From the sequence record PX915676.1: a stretch of DNA of 64,000 nucleotides. The stretch is one strand, 5' to 3'. The first letter of the stretch is position 1. Each line of letters opens with the position of its first letter. The notes beneath the pieces are model-generated. The model ran no database searches. It saw only the letters and a list, made by a program, of their open reading frames with translations, and had not been told where the DNA came from. This DNA is from a phage. Below are positions 382-44,597 of the stretch, piece after piece. Position numbers and translations under genes: made by a program.

Positions 382-457
382 GCGCTCTTAGCTCAATGGA
401 TAGAGCAGTAGCCTTCTAAGCTATTGGTTACAGGTTCGAGTCCTGTAGGGCGCACCA
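382..457 (+). tRNA. tRNA-Arg (anticodon UCU)
   Basis: Cloverleaf folds by hand: acceptor GCGCTCT/AGGGCGC, D-arm GCTC-AATGGATA-GAGC, anticodon stem GTAGC/GCTAT with loop CTTCTAA (anticodon TCT), T-arm ACAGG-TTCGAGT-CCTGT, discriminator A and encoded CCA. Confidence 0.85.
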
Positions 458-24052: not shown

Positions 24053-24307
24053 ATGTCTATTGTAAAAATCGTAAATATTTTTGATGTAACCAGAGATGGC
24101 AAGATTGTTAAGTGGACTTTCACTAACCACCACAACAAATCAAACAAGATCATCGAACGGATGATTGAGATTAACCCAAAAACAGCTCGCACTAATGTAA
24201 TCCTTCGTGGTGCTGATGGTAAATTCATTTCTTATAAAAACAAAGACGTAGAAAAATCTTTCCGTGTTGCAGTAGAAAATCTCATCCCATTCCCTAAAGG
24301 AGTTTAA
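24053..24307 (+). CDS. hypothetical protein, paralog family C copy 1
   Basis: 84 aa; shares KTART-V-LR...GKFISY...PFPKG with next ORF. Confidence 0.5.
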   Translation: MSIVKIVNIFDVTRDGKIVKWTFTNHHNKSNKIIERMIEINPKTARTNVILRGADGKFISYKNKDVEKSFRVAVENLIPFPKGV

Positions 24308-24308
24308 T

Positions 24309-24593
24309 ATGAATAAGTTAGCTATGGTTCAAATTCGGGACACATACCCTAACCGCCCGGAGCAGAAACCGCGTACTTGGTCTTATCTGTTGGCTGAAAG
24401 TAAGACTATTGACAAATACGCTGTAGGGGTTGATGCTATTCCAACTAGTATCACATTGCTCCCTCACAAAACAGCCAGAACCCATGTGATGTTACGTGAT
24501 AGCAAAGGTAAGTTTATCTCTTATCGTGATTCACGAATCAATAATGAGATTAAATCTGCTATGGAATTTTTGATGCCATTCCCAAAAGGTTGA
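24309..24593 (+). CDS. hypothetical protein, paralog family C copy 2
   Basis: 94 aa; AGGAG SD. Confidence 0.5.
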   Translation: MNKLAMVQIRDTYPNRPEQKPRTWSYLLAESKTIDKYAVGVDAIPTSITLLPHKTARTHVMLRDSKGKFISYRDSRINNEIKSAMEFLMPFPKG

Positions 24594-24596
24594 GTA

Positions 24597-24755
24597 ATGA
24601 AAGAATATATTTACGTAGGACAGCGCTGGTTCGGTGATGAATGGGAAGGTGGTTACAGCGTTGTGAAAGCTTTTAAGTCTGAAGAAGATGCCAAGTCATG
24701 GGTCTTAAAAGATGACGTCGGTGAGAGAACTTACATTGAAGTAGAGGTGGAGTAG
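24597..24755 (+). CDS. small hypothetical protein
   Basis: 52-aa ORF below track cutoff; ATG overlaps upstream stop. Confidence 0.3.
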   Translation: MKEYIYVGQRWFGDEWEGGYSVVKAFKSEEDAKSWVLKDDVGERTYIEVEVE

Positions 24756-24756
24756 G

Positions 24757-25179
24757 ATGCCATTACCAGCTAGACACCAAAACCGTTTCTTAGTTCTCAA
24801 GTGGGATGATATCGAAATGAATCTCACTGAACATGAACTAGATTTGTTCCATGAATTATTATCAGAGATTCGCTCTGGTATTCCTGAACGTCAGTATGTG
24901 GTTATCAGTGATAAACACCCTCAAGAGTTTGAAGAAGCTTGGGGTATGAAGCTGGCCTACATTCAGAGAGCTATTAGAGAAAGAGAAGAAGTTGCTAATC
25001 AGAGGGTTGTGGCTCATCTGGTACGAGAACAGCCTCGTGAAGCCAGAGCTACACATACACCACCTCCGCCCCCTCCTTGGACAGTTGTCAACGGGACAGT
25101 TAGGGCTTATAGTGATGAAGCAACCATGCTGAATGTAGTAGAAGATAACCAAGCATTTACAGATTTACTTTACCAATAA
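24757..25179 (+). CDS. hypothetical protein
   Basis: GGTGGAG SD; 140 aa; proline run PPPPPPW. Confidence 0.45.
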   Translation: MPLPARHQNRFLVLKWDDIEMNLTEHELDLFHELLSEIRSGIPERQYVVISDKHPQEFEEAWGMKLAYIQRAIREREEVANQRVVAHLVREQPREARATHTPPPPPPWTVVNGTVRAYSDEATMLNVVEDNQAFTDLLYQ

Positions 25180-25195
25180 TTTAAAGGAGTATAAA

Positions 25196-27040
25196 GTGAG
25201 CAACCCGGACGCTCTTCCATTTTTGACAGAGATGACTGTCGCTGATATAATCTCTAAGCAAGCAAAGCACGGAGTGAGTTTCAACCGAAGAAATGCTCGG
25301 TGGTATGTTCACCTCCTTAAAGAGATTATTGTTAATATTGACAGAGAGTTGATTCCTCTCTTACCTAAGATGAGATTAGACGGCTCTACTTATATGAAGC
25401 CGTTTAAGAAGTCTGGAGCTTTGCAGAAATGGCCTCAAGCTTATTGTGATAGGGTTGGGCTGAAGAGAGAAGACATTGGCGGAGCTTTCACCTGTGTCGA
25501 ATACGTAGACTTTGACCCATCGAAAGATGCACGAGTTAAAGAAGCTCTTATGGATGAGGGCTTTCTTCCTCCAGAGTTTAACGTATCTAAGAAGCCTTGG
25601 AATACTTTCGAAATTAAGAAAGATATGAGAAAGTATGGAACATACCAAGCATGGTATACTGCTTGGATGCGAGGCAATGCTAAGCAAAAGCAGACAGCCG
25701 AGATGGTTGACGCTGATATTAAGAAGTTCTTAGAAAAGCATTTCAGGTTTAAGACTAAGAATTACATGAAGGCTTACGTATTTGGTTTGGGGTTGAACCC
25801 TAATCGCCGTAATCCTGTAACGTTTGATGAGATTAAGAAAGCGCTAGCCACATCAAACAAGTGGCCTACAGCTCCTACAAATCTCGAGGAGACTCTCGAA
25901 GAAGGGTTAGGAGGTGAGCTAGGGAGTGTCGGAAGTTTGCTTAAGAGACGCGTTGTAGCAGCTCACAGGCTAGGTCTTATCAATGGACTCATAGCAAAGG
26001 AACGCGAAGATGGTAAACTTTCGGCAGAAGCTAACAGCTGCGCTACGCCGACTTTTCGATTCAAACATCGTATCGTGGTTAATATTCCCTCCCGTGGTTT
26101 GTTTGGTCACGAGTGTCGCAGTTTGTTTGAGTCTGACTATAACTCAGACAGTGATCATTCTCGTCCTTTCATTATTACTAACGTTGTTCCTGATGGTTGT
26201 TATATACGAAAAGGTACTAACGTAATTTACGAGAAGGGTAAGCCGGGGAAGAAAGACAAACCTGTAGGTGCTTACAAATATTACATACCCGCTGGTAAAG
26301 AAGTATTCTTAGGGTATGATGGTTCTGGGCTTGAACTTCGCATGCTCGCTCACTACCTCATTAAAGAGTGTAGGGACATGCTTGCTGAAGCAATAGAAGA
26401 GAATAATCCAGCTAAGAAAGCTCTGGCAGAACGTGGTTTAGCTTCTGCTATTATGTATCGTGACATCCTCCTTGAAGGGGATATCCACTCCCACAACCAG
26501 AAACTTGCTGGTCTTCCTACTCGTGACAACGCTAAGACCTTTATCTACGCATTCAACTATGGTGCTGGTGATGCTAAGCTCGGTTCAATTGTAGGTGGTG
26601 GGGCTGACGAAGGTTCAGTGATGCGAGCACGTTTCTTAGCAGAGAACCCATGTATTGCAATCCTCATTGATCGTATGACAGAGAAAGCTGCTCAAGGATA
26701 CTTGATTGGTGTCGATGGTCGTAAGATTACAATGAGACGGGATGCCACTGGTAAGGTTATGGTTCATAAAGCCCTTAACACACTCCTGCAATGTGCTGGT
26801 GCTGTTGTTATGAAATATGCTATGATGTTCCTTAACAAGTGGATTGAGAAAGATAAGGTTCGTTGTGCTAAGGTAATTGATATGCACGATGAAGGTCAAT
26901 TCTCAGTAAACCGTAATGATGTACAGAAACTCAAAGAGCACACTGAGCTTTGTGTTAAGAAAGCTGGCGAGTATCTGAACATGGAATGTCCTCTGGCATC
27001 TGATTGTCAGATTGGACTTAACTGGATGCATACACACTAA
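25196..27040 (+). CDS. DNA polymerase, family A, polymerase domain only
   Basis: Motif A DGSGLELRMLAHY, motif B RDNAKTFIYAFNYGAG, motif C VIDMHDEGQF; AAGGAG SD before GTG; no exonuclease motifs in this ORF. Confidence 0.85.
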   Translation: MSNPDALPFLTEMTVADIISKQAKHGVSFNRRNARWYVHLLKEIIVNIDRELIPLLPKMRLDGSTYMKPFKKSGALQKWPQAYCDRVGLKREDIGGAFTCVEYVDFDPSKDARVKEALMDEGFLPPEFNVSKKPWNTFEIKKDMRKYGTYQAWYTAWMRGNAKQKQTAEMVDADIKKFLEKHFRFKTKNYMKAYVFGLGLNPNRRNPVTFDEIKKALATSNKWPTAPTNLEETLEEGLGGELGSVGSLLKRRVVAAHRLGLINGLIAKEREDGKLSAEANSCATPTFRFKHRIVVNIPSRGLFGHECRSLFESDYNSDSDHSRPFIITNVVPDGCYIRKGTNVIYEKGKPGKKDKPVGAYKYYIPAGKEVFLGYDGSGLELRMLAHYLIKECRDMLAEAIEENNPAKKALAERGLASAIMYRDILLEGDIHSHNQKLAGLPTRDNAKTFIYAFNYGAGDAKLGSIVGGGADEGSVMRARFLAENPCIAILIDRMTEKAAQGYLIGVDGRKITMRRDATGKVMVHKALNTLLQCAGAVVMKYAMMFLNKWIEKDKVRCAKVIDMHDEGQFSVNRNDVQKLKEHTELCVKKAGEYLNMECPLASDCQIGLNWMHTH

Positions 27041-27048
27041 GGTGAGTG

Positions 27049-27414
27049 ATGAAAGAAACCAATATCATCTACAGAACATTGAGATGTTTAGCTAAAGAGA
27101 GGGGGATGGAGGATTTCCTCCTCCAATATTATGAAATAGCTAAGACTGGAATTTATCCAAAATGGTTTAGTGAAGATCACGGATTATGCTTCAACTTTCG
27201 CTGTTATAAGAGGTATTACTATTTCACAAAGCATTTAGATATTGACGACATGAAGGATATGTTTAATCAAGAAAAGTTTTTGGACCCAACATACCCATTC
27301 GGATGTGATCAATATTTTAGAGATAGGGAAAACGGGGCACATCATAAGAATCCAAAACGACGGGCTTGGATTAAAGATACACTGAAAACTCTATATAGTA
27401 TTGAGGTTGAGTGA
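27049..27414 (+). CDS. hypothetical protein
   Basis: AAGGTGAG SD; 121 aa. Confidence 0.45.
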   Translation: MKETNIIYRTLRCLAKERGMEDFLLQYYEIAKTGIYPKWFSEDHGLCFNFRCYKRYYYFTKHLDIDDMKDMFNQEKFLDPTYPFGCDQYFRDRENGAHHKNPKRRAWIKDTLKTLYSIEVE

Positions 27415-27605
27415 TGAGTGTTCGTGGTTATTATGAATCTTGGGCCGTCTTTAGTGGTGGCTCCACTCTCGTAGCATTAAATGGTCAACTGTGTATCTTT
27501 GAGACAGAGAACTTAGCAATAACCAAAGCAGCAGAGCTAGTTCGAAAGTTTCCAAACAAGACATTCACAGTTAAAAGGATAGAAGTACCTGCATTGGTAG
27601 AGTGA
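27414..27605 (+). CDS. hypothetical protein
   Basis: 63 aa; ATG overlaps upstream stop. Confidence 0.4.
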   Translation: MSVRGYYESWAVFSGGSTLVALNGQLCIFETENLAITKAAELVRKFPNKTFTVKRIEVPALVE

Positions 27606-27788
27606 ATAAATAAGACGAATGAACTATTCTTATTGATTGGTTCGTAACAAGGAGATTGAAGTGGAAGAGATGCCATCGGATTGGTGTTATCGTCAGAGCG
27701 CCATCTGTAATGAACAAGGTCGTCCTGATGAGGCTGAGTTCTATCTAGAGCTAGCCGAACTGTGGAAAGAACGAGAGGAGAAAGAGTG

Positions 27789-27956
27789 ATGGAAGGTATT
27801 TACCGTAAACCGCCTCCAAAATATAACATCCTTTATACTGATGCAACAGGCGAGTTTAGGAGTGTGTTAGTTTACACGGATGAAGAACGAAACCAAATGG
27901 TTGCTGCTATTGAAGCCAATGGTGGTACAATCATGCGAATTTATAACATAACATAA
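27789..27956 (+). CDS. hypothetical protein
   Basis: GAGAGGAGAAAGAG SD before ATG; 55 aa. Confidence 0.35.
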   Translation: MEGIYRKPPPKYNILYTDATGEFRSVLVYTDEERNQMVAAIEANGGTIMRIYNIT

Positions 27957-27965
27957 GGAATATCA

Positions 27966-28142
27966 ATGACTGCTTCTGAATTAAAAGAAACCCTATCCAC
28001 TGAAGAAGGTAAAGCTTTCTTCTTATCTCAAGTACACTCTATGGGTAAAGATGCCCTTCGCCAAGCAGTCGTTGAGCTTACTGGTGTAGTGATTGACTTG
28101 AGTATTGAAAACGAAACACTTGAAGCTAAAGTGAACAGTTAA
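27966..28142 (+). CDS. small hypothetical protein
   Basis: 58-aa ORF below track cutoff; AAGGAA SD; followed by terminator. Confidence 0.35.
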   Translation: MTASELKETLSTEEGKAFFLSQVHSMGKDALRQAVVELTGVVIDLSIENETLEAKVNS

Positions 28143-28148
28143 ATAAGA

Positions 28149-28172
28149 AGCTGCCTTCGGGCGGCTTTTCTT
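28149..28172 (+). terminator. rho-independent terminator
   Basis: AGCTGCC-TTCG-GGCGGCT 7-bp stem with tetraloop, then TTTTCTT. Confidence 0.55.
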
Positions 28173-28188
28173 GTCTAAAGGATTTGAC

Positions 28189-28581
28189 ATGAATATTGGT
28201 TTAGATTATGATGACACTTACACAGCAGACAGACGACTGTGGAGAGATGTGATAGGCTTGATGAAAGAATACGGACATGATGTAAGATTCGTGACTTTCC
28301 GTTTCTCAGAGCCTAACGGTTATGATAACGTGGATATCCTCTACGATGCAGAGACCTTGCAGATTCCTATCATCTTTTGTAATGGTGTCCAGAAGGATGA
28401 GGTGTGTCGACAGTTAGGTTTCTTCGTAGATATCTGGATTGATGACTTCCCTGTTGGAATCCCCAAAAAGGACCACCTAGACGGTATGCTGAAGGGCGTA
28501 AGACTTAATGACCTTAGGGCAGCACCTCCTGTAGAAATAGCCGCTCCTGTGTACTCTGAAGAGCCTTTGGTGATTCGATGA
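28189..28581 (+). CDS. putative HAD-like phosphatase/nucleotidase
   Basis: N-terminal GLDYDDT (DxD-type nucleophile motif) and later VDIWIDD; assignment tentative. Confidence 0.35.
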   Translation: MNIGLDYDDTYTADRRLWRDVIGLMKEYGHDVRFVTFRFSEPNGYDNVDILYDAETLQIPIIFCNGVQKDEVCRQLGFFVDIWIDDFPVGIPKKDHLDGMLKGVRLNDLRAAPPVEIAAPVYSEEPLVIR

Positions 28582-28754
28582 AAAAGATAATTCTTTGGGC
28601 TTTAGGTATAGCTCTATTCCTATATCTTATCGATATCGGAGGGGATGCCAGTAGAGAAGACTGTGAAGTGAGGTTGTCTCAAGAGTTTAAGTCAGAGACA
28701 AAGTGGGTTAATGGTCGATGCTATGTAAAAGATTGGGGAAGAACTTCTCGATGA
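28578..28754 (+). CDS. small membrane/secreted protein
   Basis: 58-aa ORF below cutoff; hydrophobic N-terminus IILWALGIALFLYLI. Confidence 0.3.
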   Translation: MKKIILWALGIALFLYLIDIGGDASREDCEVRLSQEFKSETKWVNGRCYVKDWGRTSR

Positions 28755-28912
28755 AAAAGTATAGTGTATGGTTTAACGAGGTAGAAGAGGGTTTTGATGA
28801 AGTCGGAGGATGGGTAAATATCCTAAACACTGACGATATAGAAGAGGCCGAGAAGTGCGCCCTAAACTACAACTCTGGGTATTATGAAAGAAATTGGGAA
28901 TATGAGGAATAA
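28751..28912 (+). CDS. small hypothetical protein
   Basis: ATG overlaps upstream stop (ATGA); 53 aa. Confidence 0.3.
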   Translation: MKKYSVWFNEVEEGFDEVGGWVNILNTDDIEEAEKCALNYNSGYYERNWEYEE

Positions 28913-28914
28913 GA

Positions 28915-29136
28915 ATGATTTGGGTTCACACTTATAGAATTGGGAAGAAAGGGCTTACTACTATTCACACATCTGAAGATAGTGCTAAAGCATCTCAGGC
29001 TGTACTGAAAGGAAAGATCACACCTTATGTAGTTGCTGAAGAAAAGAAGAGTCCTCCAGTTCTGGAATACTTAGGAACAGGTAAAGCTTATACAGCACTG
29101 GATGTTATTAACAACAAACAAGGAGATATGGCATAA
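28915..29136 (+). CDS. hypothetical protein
   Basis: GAGGAA SD; 73 aa. Confidence 0.4.
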   Translation: MIWVHTYRIGKKGLTTIHTSEDSAKASQAVLKGKITPYVVAEEKKSPPVLEYLGTGKAYTALDVINNKQGDMA

Positions 29137-29138
29137 AA

Positions 29139-29354
29139 ATGGAATACATTGATAAATACTCAAGTGAAGATTCAACAGACGCTGAAGTTTTATTTATACT
29201 AAAAACAGACTGTCTTGAACATGGTCAACTTATCAATTTCATTGAGTTGGCAAAACTTAAAGAAGAGATTGATCAACTATATAGTGATGAGCAATCCAGA
29301 TTACTTTCTCTATCCCTTCTAGGTGATTTAACTTGCGATGGGTGCACTATCTAA
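29139..29354 (+). CDS. hypothetical protein
   Basis: 71 aa ORF. Confidence 0.4.
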   Translation: MEYIDKYSSEDSTDAEVLFILKTDCLEHGQLINFIELAKLKEEIDQLYSDEQSRLLSLSLLGDLTCDGCTI

Positions 29355-30098: not shown

Positions 30099-30345
30099 TT
30101 AATATTCTTTTAAATAGAGAATCAAAGTCCCTAGGAGTCCCTACAACCTAAATCAAGGATTCCTTAATTCTCTATTTTTATCTCGCAGGTGGCTCCTGCC
30201 CTTCGGTACTTGCAAGGGATTCTGTGAATTGCCCAATATACAAGCCTGCAATAACTTTATCAGCTATACAATATATACATTACTAGTGTGTTATATCTAC
30301 TACCAAAGATACTTATATTATATAGTACTCTTATCGGTATAAGCG

Positions 30346-30354
30346 TAATGTATA
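30346..30354 (+). promoter_or_regulatory. TAATGTATA promoter-like motif
   Basis: Exact 9-mer 60 nt upstream of ATG 30414 within a 315-bp AT-rich intergenic region. Confidence 0.4.
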
Positions 30355-35514: not shown

Positions 35515-35567
35515 AGAAAATTGGGATGTATGACGAATTTGATGGTTTTTAAAACTTAGAAATAATA

Positions 35568-35600
35568 AAGCCCCCTTCCTTTCGGTTGGGGGCTTTTCTT
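35568..35600. terminator. bidirectional rho-independent terminator at convergence of the two gene blocks
   Basis: AAAG-GCCCCC-12 nt loop-GGGGGC-TTTTCTT; A-run upstream and T-run downstream allow function on both strands. Confidence 0.6.
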
Positions 35601-35603
35601 TTA

Positions 35604-38600
35604 TCACTCCTTAGGTCGAACTCTTACACGGAGTCTCGATTGACGCTTACTGCGTTCAAGCTTCTCTGACAATGAGCCACGTTTAATCTTCGGCTTCCCT
35701 TCGTCATTAAACTTCTCCAAGAACTGCAAGTACTCAGTACGATTCGTTGTCTTGTAAGAAGGAATCTTGATATCAGGGTTCTCTTCAATCACACGTCTCA
35801 TCTTCGCTACATCATCCCTACCAAGCAACTTACTCTTAGCCTGTTCAGCTGTAGAACCAAAGATCTTCTCCAGTGCTCTAGATTTGTTACCGCCTGCGGA
35901 AGAAGCACCAAGTTTAGCAATAGCAGAGTAATCATCAGCACTAAACCAAGCTACTGGATTATCACCATACTTCTTCTTGTTTTCAGCAGCGGTCTGCAAT
36001 GCACGCACAAAGCGACGGTTGTTACCAGCCTTATCTGCACCATGAACCCTGTCTAAAACTTCAGCCACACTAGCCAACTCATCCAAGCTCTTCCCACTCA
36101 AGAAAGCTTTCTCTACTTTATCAGCAAAGACCTCTTCCTGTTGTTTAATGCTTTCCAAGATATCAGAATTTGCTTGAGATCTTTCATCATCAGGCAGAGC
36201 AGAACGAATCTTCTCCATCTCCAACTCTTCCTCTTGCAGTTTCTTAATATCAGAGTCAACCTTCTGAGCCTCCTCAATAGCCTTCCTAGTATCCGCATCC
36301 AAGTTATCAAGCTTACCTTCAGTATCTCCAGTAACCTTAACAATCTCTTTCTCGATAGGAGTCATTGATTCGTACTTCTTAGCAAACTTCTCAACATCAG
36401 CTTCGATACGAGAACGAGCATTCTGATGTTCAGTAGGAGTCATAGGTTTCTCAAGAAGTGCATAACGGTTGTCCATATAGGAACCAGCAAACGCTTCAGC
36501 ATCCTCTCTAGATATGCCCTTATCTTCCATAGTACGCATCAGGCGGCGATGAATGTCATCACGTTGACGTTGTACTGCCATAAGGTCATTCTCACGCTCT
36601 TGGGCCGCTTTAAGTTCTTCACTGCGCTTAACTCTCTTGTCCACATCAAACTTACGGTTCATCTCTTCCGCTTGCTCATACATCTTGTTCCACTTGGCCT
36701 GACGAGCATCTTCCTCTGCATCAGTTAAACGACGCTGACGATCAAGGTAATCTGACTCGGCGTTATGGATACGTTCGATATAACTACGGAACTTCTCTGG
36801 AGGAACTGGAGAGTTCTTGTCATGGTGAGCAGCCAACTGTTTCAATGTACGAGATTCCTGAGCCTCACGAACGGGTTTAGGTAAACCTTCCATCATCTTC
36901 TCAATCTCGCTCTTCTGAGCTGCAATAGCCTCTAGAGTTTTACGTTCATTCTCAACAACAGCCTTAGCATCCGAACGAGCCTGAGCCTTTTTCCTGAGTG
37001 TAGCAAGACGTTCTTCACGAGCCTGTAAATGCTTAGCAGCAGCTTCGTACTGAGAGTTCTTGTTAGCTTTGTTGAAGGCATTCACTTCTCTGTTATAGGT
37101 GTTAATAAACCCATCCCAAATATCCTTCATCTGACCAACTTCCAAAGCCTCTTCCCTACCAGCCTTCTCTGAAGATTTAAACTTCCCATCTACAAAGTCA
37201 TTCATCAGCTTACGCATAGCATCTTTCTGAGCAGGACGTAAAGGTTCTGAATCAATCAAAGCATCAATCTCAGACTGAAGCTCTTTCTTCTGGTCAACCA
37301 GCTTAGGAGCATTCTTGTTATCGAAAGCTTTATTCTCTTCTAGAGCTTGTTGGTACAGTCTATCAAACTCATCTTCACGCTGCTTCTGATACAACCTTTC
37401 AGCACGACGTTTCAGACTATCCAAGTTAGTTACGTTCCCACCTAAACCTTTCTCTTCAGCACGTAATGCCTTAGTAGCAATGTCTTCTGGCAGACCACGT
37501 TCCTTAACCCATTCAGCAAAATTAGTTCGTACAGTGTTGTTCTTAGCAGTAGCAATACCTTGCTGAGAAGCCAGCTGGTTACGAGCCATTTCTTCATGAC
37601 GTTCAGTGTTGATAGCATTGTCTTCCTGACGAATACGACGCATCAATTCCTTAGGATCACCTTTATAAGCCAAGAAGTTTTCAGCAGTAGCTTTAGCCTT
37701 AGCAGCCTTAGAGTACAGAGAACGAGCAAAACGTTCTGCACGATCTTTAGTAGCCTGACGAGCAGCACTTGACATAGCAGCTAAACGCTCTACACCACTT
37801 GCCGGTTTAACGTCCTGTACAGCTTCCTTAGGAGCTTTAGGAGCACGAGCAGGTAATGGCTCAGCTTTGACTGTTGGTTCCTCTACGGTTGGTTCTGGAG
37901 CCTGTGCGGCCTCTTCTTGAGCACGTTGCTGTTCCATTGCACGACGCTCCTCTAGAGGGTTACGAGCAGGGAGAGGTTCAGCCTGTGGAGCTTGTTCGAC
38001 TGGAGCTTCTTGAGCAGCAGCTGCCTCTTCTTCAGCGCGACGCTGTTCAGCCTGACGGATAGCACGTCTTTGCGCAACTAAATCACGAGCTGTAAGAGGG
38101 GTTTCTTGAGGAGCAGAAGAAGGAAGATTTTCTTCCGTCATAGTACTAGAAGAAGGCTCCCGAACCGGTTCGGTTTCCACGTCATTTTGCGTCTTAAATT
38201 TAATGTCATCAACAACTGGTTCTTCTTCCATTTTAGCACGAGCTTCATCAGCAGTAGATTTAGCACGAGCAACTTCCAAATCACCACGAGCCAGAGAGCG
38301 GATAGCTTCACTGTTAGATTCTTGTTGCTTAACACGTTGAGAACGGGCACGCTGAGAAGAGAAGCGATTCAGAGCATATTTAGCAGCACCGAGAGTGTTC
38401 ATTACCAGACTGGGTGAAGAAGCCTCACGGAATCCATCATCAGTCAGGGAAGTCCAACCACGATCTTGGTTGCTCATGAATTTAGCTGTATTGTTCAGAG
38501 TATAAGCATCTTGAATAGGATTAAAACCTTCAGGCATACCTTTCAGTTTCTTCAACCCACCAATAGCTTTCTTCATCTCTGGAGAAACATTATCAGCCAT

Positions 38601-40025
38601 CTTCTGTAGTTCAGCAGCTTTCTCTACAAAGTTATTAAAGTCTTCACCATCACGAGCTTTGAATCGATTTGCTTCATTGTAGAAAGTCTTGTAAGCATCA
38701 ATGAAATCACGGTCAGCTTGTGTACGGTTCTTAATATCAATCGGACTACCAGTAAAATCACCAGAAGCTCGGAGAGAGGTTAATTCACGGTCTAGATTAT
38801 CTAGAACATCTGTAAGAGCTTTCGTGTTGTCTTTGGTGTAGTCAGCCATTGCGTCCTTCATAGCAACAGCCTGCTTCTGGTTGTGCTCGTTATCAGCGAA
38901 TGCTTTACCACGAGTCTTAGCAGGAGAAGCTAAAGGGTTGAGGCCCGGAATGTTGGAATGTTCTTTCTGAACGGAAGCAGCTTTCTCAGCACGAGCTTGG
39001 TCAGTATTAAGAATACGCTGAGCGGCAGGAGAATCTACAGCAACAGCATCTGTAATACGGAATCCATTCTCATCCAGAAGGTTCAGAGCAGAAGCAGCGT
39101 TAGCAGTTTCAGCTTTAGAGTAAGCTTCTTTCAATTCATCAACATTCTTAGCACTACGAATCAGTTCATCATCAGCAGCAATATCGGTCTTCGCATACTC
39201 TGGAGTATTCTTGAAGACAGCAGAATCCGGACGGCTAATCAAACCATGAACCCCACCAACTGCACCACCGAATGCAGCACCCATAGCACCTTCTTCGATA
39301 GCACCTTCTAATACATTAGCAAAGGTTGTATCATCTCCATGCTTGTTCTGAGCTTCAGCAGCACCTACAAGAGCACCACCTTTAGCACCAGCCACTGCGT
39401 TAGTAGCAACGTTCTGACCAATACGTCCAAGTGTGGATTCAGCTGTACCGACAGCACCCGGAAGGATTCTCTGAGCCGCATAGTTAGCACCACCAACTAA
39501 GGCTGCATCTAGAATAGACTTATCTTCTCCCTCTTCAGGGGTTTGGTCTGCATATGCACGACCTGTCTCACGACCTGCGATGATAGCAGCAGCAGCCAAT
39601 GGGTTAGCAACTGTCAAACCGATATCACCAGCAACACCAGCATACTGACCGACAGTTTTACCAATCCCATCCTCAATCTTATCCATACGTTCTTTCAGAA
39701 GGTTCTGAGAGTTCTCTTGGATACGCTTACCATAACTAGTTTGTGCTCCAGCTAGATTCTCACCAATCTCAACTAAACCACCAATACCTTTAGCAGCACT
39801 AGCTGCAATATTTGCACCACCAGATTGAAGAGCATTTGACACACCTTGAGCAAACTCACCTATAGCACCACGTTCTTCTTGTTGTGGTTGTGCTATTGGT
39901 TGTTCCTCAGGAATAGAGCCACCTGCTGCCTTATATTGTTCTCTCATTTGAGCTTGTTGCTCCGGAGAGGCATTCAGATACGCAGGAGCTTTGGAAGCTT
40001 CTTCCCACGGTTTAATGTTAGCCAT
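35604..40025 (-). CDS. large virion-associated protein (1473 aa), repeat-rich
   Basis: Start taken at ATG with AAGGAG SD (track start 40070 is an upstream in-frame ATG); Gly/Ala-rich N-terminal region, long charged coiled-coil-like stretches, tandem EPLPAR-containing repeats; last gene of structural block. Confidence 0.5.
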   Translation of the reverse strand: MANIKPWEEASKAPAYLNASPEQQAQMREQYKAAGGSIPEEQPIAQPQQEERGAIGEFAQGVSNALQSGGANIAASAAKGIGGLVEIGENLAGAQTSYGKRIQENSQNLLKERMDKIEDGIGKTVGQYAGVAGDIGLTVANPLAAAAIIAGRETGRAYADQTPEEGEDKSILDAALVGGANYAAQRILPGAVGTAESTLGRIGQNVATNAVAGAKGGALVGAAEAQNKHGDDTTFANVLEGAIEEGAMGAAFGGAVGGVHGLISRPDSAVFKNTPEYAKTDIAADDELIRSAKNVDELKEAYSKAETANAASALNLLDENGFRITDAVAVDSPAAQRILNTDQARAEKAASVQKEHSNIPGLNPLASPAKTRGKAFADNEHNQKQAVAMKDAMADYTKDNTKALTDVLDNLDRELTSLRASGDFTGSPIDIKNRTQADRDFIDAYKTFYNEANRFKARDGEDFNNFVEKAAELQKMADNVSPEMKKAIGGLKKLKGMPEGFNPIQDAYTLNNTAKFMSNQDRGWTSLTDDGFREASSPSLVMNTLGAAKYALNRFSSQRARSQRVKQQESNSEAIRSLARGDLEVARAKSTADEARAKMEEEPVVDDIKFKTQNDVETEPVREPSSSTMTEENLPSSAPQETPLTARDLVAQRRAIRQAEQRRAEEEAAAAQEAPVEQAPQAEPLPARNPLEERRAMEQQRAQEEAAQAPEPTVEEPTVKAEPLPARAPKAPKEAVQDVKPASGVERLAAMSSAARQATKDRAERFARSLYSKAAKAKATAENFLAYKGDPKELMRRIRQEDNAINTERHEEMARNQLASQQGIATAKNNTVRTNFAEWVKERGLPEDIATKALRAEEKGLGGNVTNLDSLKRRAERLYQKQREDEFDRLYQQALEENKAFDNKNAPKLVDQKKELQSEIDALIDSEPLRPAQKDAMRKLMNDFVDGKFKSSEKAGREEALEVGQMKDIWDGFINTYNREVNAFNKANKNSQYEAAAKHLQAREERLATLRKKAQARSDAKAVVENERKTLEAIAAQKSEIEKMMEGLPKPVREAQESRTLKQLAAHHDKNSPVPPEKFRSYIERIHNAESDYLDRQRRLTDAEEDARQAKWNKMYEQAEEMNRKFDVDKRVKRSEELKAAQERENDLMAVQRQRDDIHRRLMRTMEDKGISREDAEAFAGSYMDNRYALLEKPMTPTEHQNARSRIEADVEKFAKKYESMTPIEKEIVKVTGDTEGKLDNLDADTRKAIEEAQKVDSDIKKLQEEELEMEKIRSALPDDERSQANSDILESIKQQEEVFADKVEKAFLSGKSLDELASVAEVLDRVHGADKAGNNRRFVRALQTAAENKKKYGDNPVAWFSADDYSAIAKLGASSAGGNKSRALEKIFGSTAEQAKSKLLGRDDVAKMRRVIEENPDIKIPSYKTTNRTEYLQFLEKFNDEGKPKIKRGSLSEKLERSKRQSRLRVRVRPKE

Positions 40026-40063
40026 AACGTCTCCTTTTATAAATAAAAATGTCCTACCCCCTA

Positions 40064-40072
40064 TATACATTA
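40064..40072 (-). promoter_or_regulatory. TAATGTATA promoter-like motif (minus strand)
   Basis: Minus-strand TATAATGTATATAGG 39 nt upstream of ATG 40025. Confidence 0.4.
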
Positions 40073-40092
40073 TAGAAGGCAGGACTTAGGTC

Positions 40093-41748
40093 TTATTGAG
40101 TAAACCAGCTAGTGTCTTCGACAGCTGATAAAGCACCATTAAGCTTAGGATTGGTTGCTGCACCACCAACTGCTTCTTCTGCTTGTTCAGAGAAAACACC
40201 TAGAGGGTCATAGAAACCACCAGAAGGGATTGCACGGTTAACCAATGCAGTAGCTCTCTTCTTATCCATACCAGAACCGATGTAAGCTTCAATCGTAGCT
40301 CTCTTAGCATCAGCAACACCTTTCATTGCAGAGGTGTGACCAACATTAGCTTGCTTACGAGCATAAGCAAGAGCAGAATCAGTAGGACGCCATCCAGATT
40401 TCAGCGCAAACTTGTTGCCAACACGAACGAAGATTGATGGGTCTTCTGCAAAGTGCCCCAAGTCTTCTTCGGTAAGAGAACGAGTAGCACCGATTTCAGC
40501 CCTTGCGGAGTTCATGATAGCCTGCATGTAAGCAGAACGAGCTGTCTGATAGTCTTTATCCTTAACAGCCTTATCAGCCAAATCCAAGTCTTTGTTAGAC
40601 TGGTTAAACAGGCCACCTTTCTCTGCCCACTGCTTAGCAACCGTACCTTCAGCTGTATTCTGAGCAAGACGAACTTCTTTCGGGTTAAAGTTAAAACTCT
40701 GAGCAGCTTGTTCAGCACGTTCAGCCTTAACTTTATCACGATAACCAATCAACTCTTTCTGACGTTCAAAGTTCATGTTAGCCCTTTCTTCAGCGGCACG
40801 ACGAGTTTCATCAGCACGCTCACGCATAGTTTGCTCTTGAATCTGTTGACGTCTATCCCATTCAGCATTTTGTCGTTCTTCACGAGCAGCATACAACGCT
40901 TCTTTCTGAGCAGGGTCTACAGCTCTCATCTTCAGTAGAGACGGGTCTCCGTTAGCAATAGCAGCTGCGATCGAGTCTTGAGAGAAGCCTTGTTCAATCA
41001 GAGCATCACGGTTAGCTTCCAGTTGCTTCTTAGTCTCATCTTGATTAGCCATTCCCTGACCAATCTGGAAAGCTTCGATAGGAGACTTACCTGACATGAT
41101 TGAAAGACCTACACCCATCAAACCTGTGTAGAAACTAGAGTTCTGATAGAATGGTTCTTTCTGTAATTTGTTCCAAGCTTCTGAAGGGTCTTTAGCTTTC
41201 GCAACTTGCAAGATATCGTTGTTAACACGTTCCTGATCTTTAGCACGAGTAGCAGCAGCCATTCCATCACCAGTGTCTTGTCCTTGAGCAAGAGTGTTAA
41301 TCACACCCTGTGCCTGTTCCACCTGAGAAGGAGTAAACTCCATAGGACCAGCTTCTAGTGGTTTAGGAGGAGGTGTTACCGGAAGAGGGTCACTAGGCAT
41401 AAGCCCAGCATCCTGTAAACCTTGATCAGTGGATAGGTTAGGATTAGCTGCTACAGGGGCCGGTGCTCCAATATCAATACCCTGAAGACTAGTAGGAGTT
41501 CCTTGATTCTGCTGTTCCATAAGACGTTGCTGGAATCCCGGATTAACCATAGCATTCTGATCTTCTTCTGCCTGAGAGACAAGACCTGCAAGAGATGAAG
41601 GTACAGCAGGACGTTGATACATAGAAATATCTGCTGTCTGAGTAGGTCTAGCCATATAAGGAGAGGCCGAAGCCGCTCCCGGATTAACACCATAGAAAGT
41701 ATTTCTCGGGTCACGACTTCTGACCTGAGCGTAAGTTGTCTGTTGCAT
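40093..41748 (-). CDS. virion structural/internal protein
   Basis: 551 aa; AGGAG SD; position in structural block. Confidence 0.5.
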   Translation of the reverse strand: MQQTTYAQVRSRDPRNTFYGVNPGAASASPYMARPTQTADISMYQRPAVPSSLAGLVSQAEEDQNAMVNPGFQQRLMEQQNQGTPTSLQGIDIGAPAPVAANPNLSTDQGLQDAGLMPSDPLPVTPPPKPLEAGPMEFTPSQVEQAQGVINTLAQGQDTGDGMAAATRAKDQERVNNDILQVAKAKDPSEAWNKLQKEPFYQNSSFYTGLMGVGLSIMSGKSPIEAFQIGQGMANQDETKKQLEANRDALIEQGFSQDSIAAAIANGDPSLLKMRAVDPAQKEALYAAREERQNAEWDRRQQIQEQTMRERADETRRAAEERANMNFERQKELIGYRDKVKAERAEQAAQSFNFNPKEVRLAQNTAEGTVAKQWAEKGGLFNQSNKDLDLADKAVKDKDYQTARSAYMQAIMNSARAEIGATRSLTEEDLGHFAEDPSIFVRVGNKFALKSGWRPTDSALAYARKQANVGHTSAMKGVADAKRATIEAYIGSGMDKKRATALVNRAIPSGGFYDPLGVFSEQAEEAVGGAATNPKLNGALSAVEDTSWFTQ

Positions 41749-41761
41749 ATTTATCTCCTAA

Positions 41762-42730
41762 TTAAGTACTAGCCAACCCACCGATTACACCCCCAGCTAA
41801 TGCACCCCAAGGTCCAAAGGAAGAGCCAGCTGCTGCACCACTCATAGCTCCACCAAGGAAACCACCTTTGCCACCAGATGTTTTAGTAGTTGTAGTTTGT
41901 CCGAGAGCACCATTAAGTACACCTGCTGCACCGAGTTGGTTATTGATATCTTGCCATCCCCAATTAGCTGCGTTCTGAGCATTCTGGTAGGCATTATCAT
42001 ATTCATTCTGTTGTTGCTGTTGTTGCTGCAACCCTGCATTCCATTGATTCATTATTTGCTGTTGAGACAAATTAGCACCCTGCTGACCTAGGTTAGAAAG
42101 GTTAGAACCAATATTAGAAAGACCAGAGAGAGCAGCTGCCTGATTCTGTCTATTACCAGAGAGGATGCTTTCAGCTTGGCTGATAGCCGAGTTATAGGCA
42201 CTGTTGGTAATATCTGTTGCTTGACCTTGCATCTGATTCAGAGCATCACCTTGGGCAAAAGATTTAGCCATACGAGCACCTGAACCTTGCTGACCCGCAT
42301 ATTGTTGAGCTAACTGAGGAAGAGCATTACGTGCTAGATTCTGTTGAACCTGTTCATTGTTAGCTGTAATGGCTGCTTGCACAGCGTCATCATCATACAG
42401 TTGACCAGCGAGAGCACCAATCTGTTCTCCAGTAATCCCACCTTGTCCAGAAAGGCTCTGATAGCCTTTATAGGCATTATCCAGATACCCTAACCCTTGA
42501 CCTGCTGCATCCATGTATTGCTGTGAGAGAGTGCCCAAAGCGCCAGATTGTGCTAGGTTATTAAGTGCCTCTGTCTGATTATTATTAAACCCTACATTGT
42601 CACGATAGACATAATCCCCTGAACTAGTATTACCAATCTGTTGGTTAAGCTGGTCAATATACTGTTGAATGTATTCAGGGCGAATCATTTGGGAAGTAGT
42701 TTTACTACCCCCGCCTCCGAAAAGTCCCAT
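41762..42730 (-). CDS. Gln/Asn/Gly-rich virion protein with C-terminal glycine-zipper
   Basis: AAGGAG SD; QQQQQQQN run; C-terminus GGAMSGAAAGSSFGPWGALAGGVIGGLAST. Confidence 0.45.
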   Translation of the reverse strand: MGLFGGGGSKTTSQMIRPEYIQQYIDQLNQQIGNTSSGDYVYRDNVGFNNNQTEALNNLAQSGALGTLSQQYMDAAGQGLGYLDNAYKGYQSLSGQGGITGEQIGALAGQLYDDDAVQAAITANNEQVQQNLARNALPQLAQQYAGQQGSGARMAKSFAQGDALNQMQGQATDITNSAYNSAISQAESILSGNRQNQAAALSGLSNIGSNLSNLGQQGANLSQQQIMNQWNAGLQQQQQQQNEYDNAYQNAQNAANWGWQDINNQLGAAGVLNGALGQTTTTKTSGGKGGFLGGAMSGAAAGSSFGPWGALAGGVIGGLAST

Positions 42731-42742
42731 ATCAAATCTCCT

Positions 42743-43795
42743 TTAGTTTGCTCCAAATGCCCCTAAGACACCACCTAAGATATTACTACCTGCTGTGGAT
42801 AACCAGTTAGACTGACCTTTCTGTTGAGAAAGATTAGAACCTCCAATCATAGGACCAGCCATTCCAGATTGCCCACCTGAGTTGTTATAGGAACTCCAAG
42901 CATTCTGAGTCTGTTGGTTAGGAGAGAAAGCACCCATACGACCTGCAATACCTAAACCAGTGATACCAGCACCTAGGAGCTGTTGTCCAGTATTAACCCC
43001 CGGAGCAGCATTCTTAATTGTATACCCAGCCATTGGGCTTACACTATTTAATACATTAAGTTGGTTGTTAAGCTGATTCCACCCATACTGCTGAGAGCCA
43101 ATAGCGTTCTGCCAATTAATATCAGCTTGAGCTTGAGCTTGTTGCTGTTGCAGATTACCAGCCATCAGCTGATTCTGAATAGCTTGTTGAGTTGCCTGAA
43201 CGCCTTGAGCACCAAGATTGAGGTTCTGTCCAGCTAAACCAGACTGAGCACCAAGCAACCCTCTCTGGAAGTTCTGATCTTGTTGCAGAGCACTTACACC
43301 CATATTCTTACCACTGATAGTACGAGACAGGTTAGTGTTAGCGTCATTCAAAGCAGCCCCTTGAGCCGCAGCCCTACGGAGAGAGCCAGAGTCAGAGCCA
43401 TTGCCAAGAGAGACATTAGAAGCTGCTTTGCTAGTAGCTTGTGCAAGGGCTGAGTTATTCAAACCTTTACTAAAGTTATTAACCCCTTCAGCTGTTACTC
43501 CACCACCATTAACAATATTCTGATACTGCTGGGCAAGAGCGTTTAATTGGTCCAACCCTTGCTGTGTACGTGGTGTATACATATCAGCTAGTTTCTTCTG
43601 AGTAGTAGAAGCTGCTAAGTTGTTCAGAGCACCTTGTTGGTTGCCATTAAACCCAGCCAGCTGTTGGGAGATGAATCCCGGATCGTTGTTCTGCATATTC
43701 TGAGCATTAGCAACAATCTGCTTCAGCAGGGCATCAACCTGAGAGGAAGGGGCCACTGTGGTTTTGCTAGAAGCTGATTTTCCAAATAAAGACAT
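42743..43795 (-). CDS. Gln/Asn/Gly-rich virion protein
   Basis: AAGGAGG SD; low-complexity Q/N/G composition like neighbour. Confidence 0.45.
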   Translation of the reverse strand: MSLFGKSASSKTTVAPSSQVDALLKQIVANAQNMQNNDPGFISQQLAGFNGNQQGALNNLAASTTQKKLADMYTPRTQQGLDQLNALAQQYQNIVNGGGVTAEGVNNFSKGLNNSALAQATSKAASNVSLGNGSDSGSLRRAAAQGAALNDANTNLSRTISGKNMGVSALQQDQNFQRGLLGAQSGLAGQNLNLGAQGVQATQQAIQNQLMAGNLQQQQAQAQADINWQNAIGSQQYGWNQLNNQLNVLNSVSPMAGYTIKNAAPGVNTGQQLLGAGITGLGIAGRMGAFSPNQQTQNAWSSYNNSGGQSGMAGPMIGGSNLSQQKGQSNWLSTAGSNILGGVLGAFGAN

Positions 43796-43814
43796 AAGTC
43801 CTCCTTAAAGATTA

Positions 43815-44597
43815 TTACTTTACACCAATGCTAGCCAAACGTCTGAGCACTGCTTGTGTTTGTGGACTGTACTGAGAACCTGCTGCATGTGGTGCACTTG
43901 CCCTCTGAACTGTTTGAGAAGTCGGAGGTTTACCAGCAAGCATAGCAGCTACACCTAATACTGCATTACCAAAGTTCTGTTGAGGCTTCTGATCTTCCCC
44001 TTCTTGTGCTTCATCAGAGTAAAACTCTACTGGATTTCCGCCTAAAGCACCTGTCTTAGAAGCAGTAATGTCTGCCTGAGTTGGAGCTTGTGCGGCCTTC
44101 TCTCTATCTAACAAGTCAGGACTAAACTGATTGACTGGTTGAACAGCTTGTAAAGCTCCAACAGGGTTAGCAATCTGAGAAGCTGCATCACCATAGAAAG
44201 GAAGAAAGTGTTTGTTGTTCATTGAGTCAAGGGCTTGAGGTGTAAATCCCTTTTTACCAGCGAACATTTGCTTAGCACCACCAATGCCTTCTGAGTAACC
44301 AACCATCGCCTTCTTAACATCACCATTAAAAGCTTTTAAATTATCTCTAATATAACGAGCACCCATATCAATGTTCTTTGCTGGGTCAAGTCTGTCTTCT
44401 AGTTTGTAACCGTAGTCTTTAGCCAATCCTTTACTGATCTGCATTAAACCTACAGGACCAGTTCCAGAAGCCACTGTAGGACGACCACTAGACTCCCTTT
44501 GGATTACAGCATGAATCAAAGCAGCAGGAATCCCATACTTCTTTGAAGCCTGTTGAACCATTGGGTCTAGTTCTTCAATACCCATTTTAATTGCCAT
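43815..44597 (-). CDS. lytic transglycosylase (SLT domain) virion protein
   Basis: VIQRESSGRPTVASGTGPVGLMQI (catalytic E-S and GLMQ). Confidence 0.7.
   Translation of the reverse strand: MAIKMGIEELDPMVQQASKKYGIPAALIHAVIQRESSGRPTVASGTGPVGLMQISKGLAKDYGYKLEDRLDPAKNIDMGARYIRDNLKAFNGDVKKAMVGYSEGIGGAKQMFAGKKGFTPQALDSMNNKHFLPFYGDAASQIANPVGALQAVQPVNQFSPDLLDREKAAQAPTQADITASKTGALGGNPVEFYSDEAQEGEDQKPQQNFGNAVLGVAAMLAGKPPTSQTVQRASAPHAAGSQYSPQTQAVLRRLASIGVK

Follow-up and report, generated by a model that had tools for sequence, protein, structure and literature searches.

Detailed structural knowledge of the conduit that takes the DNA of short-tailed phages across two membranes is confined to the T7-like, P22-like and N4-like groups. 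For the Kuraviruses, the phiEco32-like phages with a nozzle-forming tail, the five ejection proteins are known merely as a list. Here we analyze one of them, a protein of 1473 amino acids encoded on the minus strand at positions 35604–40025 of a phage DNA of 64,000 nucleotides (PX915676.1; this whole stretch is called the window below). The window is a Kuravirus genome, and the protein is the Kuravirus orthologue of SU10 gp24 and phiEco32 gp26, as established from the open reading frame and its translation, from the match to PHROG 14629 and from identity to SU10_024 and phi32_26.

The closest described systems are SU10, phiEco32 and YF01. In SU10, gp24 was recovered as a 163-kDa protein with 116 peptides and 73.2% coverage by mass spectrometry of a phage preparation concentrated with polyethylene glycol (PMC4281155, Table 2). 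SU10 gp20 to gp24 are found in virions and are missing from genome-release intermediates (PMC9509320), which makes them ejection proteins, and the same five genes are annotated as such in the YF01 genome paper (PMC9965538). The window protein displays 98.4% amino acid identity with SU10_024, whose annotation agrees, and about 99% with phi32_26 (gp26). From its identity to SU10 gp24, it would likewise reside in virions and leave them when the genome is released, and we regard it as almost certain that it is a virion-borne ejection protein. A sequence-only reading of the window had proposed an ejected internal protein rather than an enzyme. Ejection has been shown for the SU10 orthologue (PMC4281155, PMC9509320), so that the question of its absence from virions has in effect been addressed there, the protein being present; on the second point, no enzyme domain was detected in Pfam, NCBIfam, PHROGs or the PDB. 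The earlier finding is confirmed as real and its interpretation is supported, and the nature of the gene is already known, as published for orthologues 98–99% identical to it.

SU10 gp24, phiEco32 gp26 and YF01 gp22 are alike in their 1473 amino acids, in their 98–99% identity and in sharing position, promoter motif and terminator. Nothing material separates them from the window protein, except that the experimental data come from those phages and not from the window isolate. PHROG 14629 was matched over the full length (1–1473 of 1473, E = 0). At least 80% of the length of the gene is found in 97 phage records, with 80–98% nucleotide identity, all of them from phages that infect Escherichia or Shigella and belong to the phiEco32 group, in Kuravirus or its sister genera; a tblastn search against 50,697 phage records revealed nothing beyond Kuravirus-like phages at 80% identity or above.

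Misleading product names are attached to orthologues in GenBank: ES17 carries ‘TolA protein’, 172-1 ‘erythrocyte binding protein 1’, ECBP2 ‘putative liver stage antigen’ and MLP3 ‘type 3 domain protein precursor’. With TolA the protein shares an Ala/Glu/Lys-rich helical composition. We rejected this identity, since neither the N-terminal anchor nor the C-terminal domain III of TolA was detected in Pfam at E up to 1 or in NCBIfam, as well as the other deposited names, no domain so named being found in Pfam at the same threshold. The only Pfam match up to E = 1 is a sub-threshold Gly-zipper_YMGG (E 0.24), and the NCBIfam search came back empty. All these deposited names are artefacts of composition. 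Domain mapping corrects such database names and leaves the presumed nature of the protein unchanged.

Modules of a protein predicted to be all-helical

The protein has a mass of 162.8 kDa and a pI of 5.7, contains 14.5% alanine and 10.5% glutamate, and is devoid of cysteine. It was modelled with AlphaFold2 (AF2) in two halves, using an alignment of 21 sequences, and both halves came out entirely alpha-helical. The N-module has a mean confidence (pLDDT, the predicted local distance difference test) of 61.8 and a predicted TM-score (pTM) of 0.49, with confident parts at residues 1–40, 275–350 and 380–520. The C-module reaches a mean pLDDT of 71.3 and a pTM of 0.31; it shows helices of up to 85–86 residues and no compact fold.

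The protein opens with a conserved motif, MAxxKxWE..SP.Y..AS..Q...QY..AGG.IP. (residues 1–40; 39906–40025, minus strand as for all parts of the gene), recognized in family alignments, modelled with a pLDDT of 66–83 and found also in gp107 of Aeromonas phage BUCT695. It is followed by a Gly/Ala-rich amphipathic region (residues 51–270; 39216–39875), defined by composition, hydropathy, invariant columns and the helical AF2 model, which is a candidate for the membrane-inserting part. Two glycine zippers, G213xxxG217xxxG221 and G249xxxG253xxxG257, are invariant in the 21 aligned sequences. This is the best-conserved part of the family in the alignment and not a product of low-complexity drift. Its hydrophobicity is borderline only (maximum Kyte-Doolittle 1.59), which fits a protein soluble in the head and inserted into a membrane later. 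Glycine zippers in amphipathic helices of borderline hydrophobicity are typical of proteins that are initially soluble and later pack their helices in membrane pores.

The helical core of the N-module (residues 271–600; 38226–39215) contains a GFNP motif in which F501 and P503 are invariant, is modelled with a pLDDT of 73–95 in its confident parts (275–350 and 380–520), and is homologous to gp24 of Salmonella phage 7-11. Beyond the linker described below, the charged all-alpha C-module (residues 738–1473; 35607–37814) is made of very long helices and is homologous to 7-11 gp27. In Kuraviruses, it has been enlarged by an internal duplication, corresponding to residues 883–946 and 1108–1168. It ends with a conserved basic tail, ...SKRQSRLRVRVRPKE, in which basic and hydrophobic residues alternate (residues 1455–1473; 35607–35663) and which was present in 21/21 family members examined. 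Two traits pointed out in the sequence-only reading are borne out by these data: the Gly/Ala-rich N-terminal segment (42% Gly+Ala in residues 51–100 and again in 201–250) and the long charged helical stretches (30–50% D/E/K/R over residues 750–1300, with the AF2 helices mentioned above).

The same reading had announced tandem Ala/Glu/Pro/Gln-rich repeats, and these stand in a modest form. Between the two modules lies a Pro/Glu/Ala/Gln-rich linker (residues 601–737; 37815–38225), delimited by composition and by the lengths of relatives. Internal BLASTP revealed within it two imperfect tandem units of 41 and 39 residues, PLTARDLVAQRRA... (643–683) and PLPARNPLEERRA... (684–722), followed by the truncated start of a third, PLPARAP (723–729), the whole covering residues 643–729 (37839–38099). 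The two units match each other at E 0.006, and at 8 of 9 positions over AEPLPAR.P. Plain self-BLAST returned nothing, the repeats being detected by a windowed, self-masked search, and at the DNA level Tandem Repeats Finder reported no tandem repeat in the linker. The repeat is real, since a relative with 98% identity (P0145) lacks, by a clean deletion of residues 663–700, exactly one 38-residue repeat length.

The linker is an indel hot spot. The number of repeat units in relatives ranges from 1 to about 7, and distant relatives carry either 3 to about 7 copies of a helix motif, P-x-(L/G)-(T/S)-A-x-E-L-x(3)-R-R, or whole inserted segments. Linker length differs among relatives whose total protein length is 1435–1754 residues, and alignments show two family members lacking any repeat linker. 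Unrelated inserts are also seen in the same linker of P0142 (about 80 residues, at ~780–860) and of P0144 (53 residues, 720–772), neither of which gave a Pfam match.

The family itself is small, since a phmmer search with residues 1–603 against 1.84 billion cluster representatives returned only 12 relatives. About 14 further ones came from a profile search, most of them on contigs of phage size, of which several measure 80–90 kb.

A proposed role in the trans-envelope DNA channel

We favor, as a fairly probable explanation of the whole, that this protein is the largest and last-encoded of the five ejection proteins and provides the inner-membrane part of a trans-envelope DNA channel. Taken separately, the claim that it is the inner-membrane channel former, drawn by analogy, has about even chances of being right. 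As an elongated, all-helical and cysteine-free protein, it would precede the DNA through the nozzle of the tail, an all-helical build with few long-range contacts making for easy threading and refolding. Once outside the virion, the Gly/Ala-rich N-terminal module would oligomerize via its two GxxxGxxxG zippers and insert into the inner membrane, thereby providing the channel's distal part. The protein would come into play once gp20, the SLT transglycosylase, has cut the peptidoglycan, and together with gp23 and with gp21/gp22, relatives of the proposed outer-membrane component of Bruynoghevirus. The Pro/Glu-rich linker could serve as a spacer, flexible and tolerant of varying length. The C-terminal part, with its long helices and basic tail, would lie on the periplasmic or the cytoplasmic side and may touch the leading end of the DNA or the remaining ejection proteins.

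The cysteine content of the module is in keeping with such a passage. The 2956 residues of gp20–gp24 include no cysteine, a residue that makes up 0.6% of the remaining late proteins (P about 2e-8 for this comparison) and 1.6% of the products of plus-strand genes. Cysteine is likewise absent from 21/21 family members, from T7 gp15 and gp16, from LUZ24 gp50–gp53 and from 7-11 gp20–gp27, which is sensible for proteins crossing into the oxidizing periplasm.

Several observations weigh against this proposal. In the SU10 cryo-electron microscopy study, no density could be assigned to gp20–gp24, so that gp24 itself was not seen (PMC9509320). In the AF2 model, the Gly/Ala-rich region has a pLDDT below 50 and shows no classical transmembrane segment. 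The allocation of gp21 to gp24 to layers of the envelope goes by analogy of size and gene order only, as does the correspondence of the big protein to the inner-membrane component in the T7 and Pa223 schemes. Searches with hhalign, HMMER and Foldseek, the last against the PDB, revealed no resemblance to T7 gp16 or gp15 in sequence or in fold. On the favorable side, the Gly/Ala-rich region can be aligned with gp50 of the Bruynoghevirus LUZ24 (PHROG 6958) in a co-linear, weak manner (hhalign probability 69% with the single sequence and 65% with a 12-sequence profile, E about 5e-5). This match stays below the level normally accepted, with 1.1 bits in HMMER, and the hhalign score may reflect Gly/Ala composition.

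Other explanations of the same features were weighed against the inner-membrane role. Instead of entering the membrane, the protein could span the periplasm as a tube or tail extension in the manner of a tape-measure protein, its helices and linker prolonging the nozzle while gp23 or another protein forms the inner-membrane part. Helices of 85–86 residues, about 12–13 nm each, and an extended Pro/Glu-rich linker would suit such a tube, nozzle extension by ejection proteins was proposed by the SU10 authors themselves (PMC9509320), and tape-measure proteins do appear among the weak matches in BFVD. These matches, however, have E values of 0.1–1, probabilities of at most 0.16 and TM-scores of 0.09–0.12, and no tape-measure family is among the Pfam and PHROGs matches. 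A linker that varies by more than 300 residues among relatives, and is missing in two of them, is also a misfit for a ruler of fixed span, and by size and order the periplasmic-tunnel analogue is rather gp23 (551 residues, against 505 for Pa223 gp54). We therefore hold the tube to be unlikely. Less probable still is a pilot or effector that would enter the cytoplasm with the leading DNA end, protecting or pulling the DNA or carrying anti-defence cargo, and would build no channel. The Arg/Lys-rich C-terminal tail conserved in all members, the Arg-rich helix repeats of the linker and the extra segments inserted there in relatives would be expected of such a protein, as would the 7-11 insert, which matches part of a giant multi-domain PHROG of 2789 positions (E 4.5e-26). 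Yet no inserted domain is present in the window protein, nor any recognizable enzymatic or DNA-binding domain, and conservation is best at the glycine-zipper region, pointing to packing in a membrane or in an oligomer.

A purely head-internal role, as a core, a DNA-spooling axis or a length determinant of the prolate C3 head, with loss on ejection as a mere by-product, appears very improbable. It would account for a very long helical protein inside the head, and the named phages that bear the family include some of the prolate C3 morphotype, Kuravirus and 7-11. Against it, protein length ranges from 1435 to 1754 residues among phages with contigs of similar size, and the gene belongs to the ejection module instead of lying beside the scaffold and capsid genes.

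Within the inner-membrane explanation, we put forward only tentatively a bolder version, in which the protein would found a class of giant ejection proteins of podoviruses, structurally unclassified and without kinship to T7 gp16. The channel in the inner membrane would be made by the invariant zippers, and the hypervariable Pro/Glu linker would be a tolerated slot in which the number of repeats changes freely and relatives have placed further domains, to be delivered into the host together with the DNA. The family profile gave chance-level matches only against PDB sequences. Foldseek searches of both AF2 modules (mean pLDDT 62 and 71) against the PDB, ejection proteins included, returned nothing below E = 1, for a class of proteins that change conformation. 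In BFVD, the only significant Foldseek matches are a Kuravirus orthologue and 7-11 gp24. The residual interest of the family lies in its lack of a structural class and of any demonstrable relationship to T7 gp16, in the polymorphism of repeat number and the domain insertions in the linker, and in the promoter-in-terminator arrangement upstream of the gene. The domain map offers handles for mutagenesis and cryo-electron tomography: a glycine-zipper N-module, a dispensable linker of variable length and a long-helix C-module with its basic tail.

Expression signals and the ejection module

The sequence-only reading had also attributed to the gene a promoter-like motif of its own and an end at a bidirectional terminator, and both hold. 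The motif TAATGTATA at 40064–40072 (minus strand) is a putative single-element promoter of the phage sigma factor, gp36 in phiEco32. It is found in 5 copies within the window against 0.83 expected by chance, agrees with the published gp36 promoter consensus tAATGTAtA (PMC8948821), and is conserved in ES17, SU10 and SU7. In phiEco32, six gp36-dependent promoters were identified experimentally, gene 26 belongs to the six genes located downstream of such promoters, and transcription starts 6–8 bp downstream of the element (PMC8948821). As judged by sequence, the element at 40064–40072 is the counterpart of the promoter that precedes gene 26 in phiEco32. Elsewhere in the window, two copies, at 30274–30282 (minus) and 30346–30354 (plus), face apart in one intergenic region with 64 bp between them, and presumably are divergent promoters of the phage sigma factor.

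The element before the gene lies in the loop and stem of a 15-bp hairpin followed by a T-run (40051–40085, minus strand), detected by terminator scan and folding, between gp23 and the 1473-residue gene (free energy −22.8 kcal/mol, z-score −5.2). In SU7, all 15 pairs are kept in spite of 5 one-sided substitutions. It resembles a terminator that would stop transcripts arriving from gp23 and that encloses the next promoter; RNA initiated at the enclosed promoter would be without the hairpin's 5′ arm. We considered whether gp36 promoters are hairpins in general and rejected it: none of the four remaining TAATGTATA sites in the window lies within a hairpin, only the one before this gene. In Aeromonas phage BUCT695, a hairpin rich in GC (GGCCCTTCGGGGCC) with a T-run behind it is seen at ~12190–12225, ahead of the homologous gene of 1385 codons. 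Since BUCT695 also has these features there, the placing of a terminator ahead of the big gene may be conserved.

Translation is served by a strong ribosome-binding site, AAGGAG, at 40031–40036 (minus strand), 5 nt upstream of the ATG at 40025. The single open reading frame extends over 35604–40070 and contains an upstream ATG at 40070, which would give a protein of 1488 residues. This codon lies inside the promoter and the hairpin, for which reason it is an unlikely start and is probably unused. FS2B and CHD5UKE1 are among the few GenBank records that use it (1488 residues). At the other end, 8 nt past the stop codon, a hairpin at 35567–35596 forms a bidirectional intrinsic terminator shared with the converging block of plus-strand genes. 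Folding gives about −20 kcal/mol per strand, with z-scores of −4.5 and −5.2, a T-run follows on each strand, and the SU10 and SU7 annotations place a terminator at the matching position.

Four ejection genes precede the big gene on the minus strand (40093–44597), identified by PHROGs, Pfam and the SU10 annotation: gp20, the SLT transglycosylase (43815–44597), gp21 (42743–43795), gp22 (41762–42730) and gp23, of 551 amino acids (40093–41748). gp21 and gp22 are tandem paralogues of phrog_4287 (‘DNA ejection protein’), Gln/Asn/Gly-rich and with Gly-rich C-termini. The 1473-residue gene is the last of this late block, which closes at the convergent terminator. The order of the module is conserved in Kuraviruses, with the SLT gene, a pair of paralogues, a protein of ~570 residues and, last, the big one of ~1350–1470. 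A 90-kb metagenomic phage contig displays the same order, with an SLT gene, two paralogues of ~330 residues, a gene for ~570 residues and the big gene, next to a convergent DNA-polymerase block. Far from the module, a tRNA-Arg with anticodon TCT is encoded at 382–457 (plus strand).

Comparison with known ejection and tape-measure proteins

Tail tape-measure proteins are long and alpha-helical, contain Gly/Ala-rich hydrophobic stretches and leave the virion at infection. The window protein resembles them in its long helices, its Gly/Ala-rich stretches and its ejection, and the label ‘tape-measure-like’ that it had received is apt as an analogy; as a statement of homology to tape-measure families, it does not stand. 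No tape-measure family was matched in Pfam or PHROGs, and the BFVD matches (E 0.1–1.7) are not significant. The window is moreover the genome of a short-tailed phage without tail tube, the length of the protein is free among close relatives, and the gene context is that of a podovirus ejection module and not of a long-tailed phage.

The homologues in Grimontviridae, PHROG 32895 (BUCT695 gp107, and gp24, gp26 and gp27 of 7-11), are of another kind. Their N- and C-modules are homologous to those of the window protein (hidden Markov model E 4e-15 and 2.4e-11; BLASTP 7e-5), the N-module matches 7-11 gp24 with a Foldseek probability of 0.99, and they share the position after a gp23 homologue as well as a Pro/Glu-rich linker with short repeats. 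Identity falls to 17–25%, and the repeat motif, PRGNPEDVAAMSRKPR, is their own. In BUCT695, a protein of 1385 residues occupies the same slot; its last two genes are shared in order, whereas the upstream genes differ and an SLT gene is not annotated. In 7-11, the slot (24208–29208) holds three annotated open reading frames, gp24, gp26 and gp27, mapping to consecutive parts of the 1723-position PHROG 32895, together with gp25 of 41 residues; this is either a real split or the result of frameshift errors in the 2011 sequence. The middle piece, gp26 (26397–27863), carries an extra globular domain at residues 76–289, the one whose giant PHROG was evoked above. It corresponds to positions 144–355 of PHROG 15406, labelled ‘DNA methyltransferase’, has no Pfam match and may represent a domain that entered the linker as cargo.

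With T7 gp16 (internal virion protein D), the likeness is one of behavior. Both are the largest ejection proteins and encoded last, helical and cysteine-free, and both are stored inside the head and leave it ahead of the DNA. T7 gp16 carries a transglycosylase domain itself, whereas in the window this activity is assigned to a separate gene, gp20, Pfam showing no SLT domain in the 1473-residue protein. Homology to T7 gp16 was rejected, with an hhalign probability of 0.4%, an hmmsearch score of −2.7 bits (E 0.9) and no match to PHROG 342.

The proposed inner-membrane complex of Bruynoghevirus, LUZ24 gp50 and Pa223 gp53, called ‘gp16-like’, comes closer in its genetic setting. It too is encoded by the largest gene of the ejection module, near the end of the late block, follows the gene of a ~505-residue periplasmic-tunnel protein, has a promoter just upstream, annotated in LUZ24 immediately ahead of the big gene, and is cysteine-free. 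It differs in its 1055 residues, in the lack of detectable similarity outside residues ~40–330, and in having neither a Pro/Glu repeat linker nor a related C-module, and neither protein matches the PHROG of the other. In LUZ24 and Pa223, the genes follow the analogous order of outer-membrane channel, periplasmic tunnel and inner-membrane complex (OMC-PT-IMC). LUZ24 gp53, the proposed outer-membrane component, matches phrog_4287 of gp21 and gp22 (2e-10), which lends independent support to the relatedness of the two ejection modules. We infer that the Kuravirus protein may be a functional analogue of T7 gp16 or Pa223 gp53, without demonstrable homology to the former.

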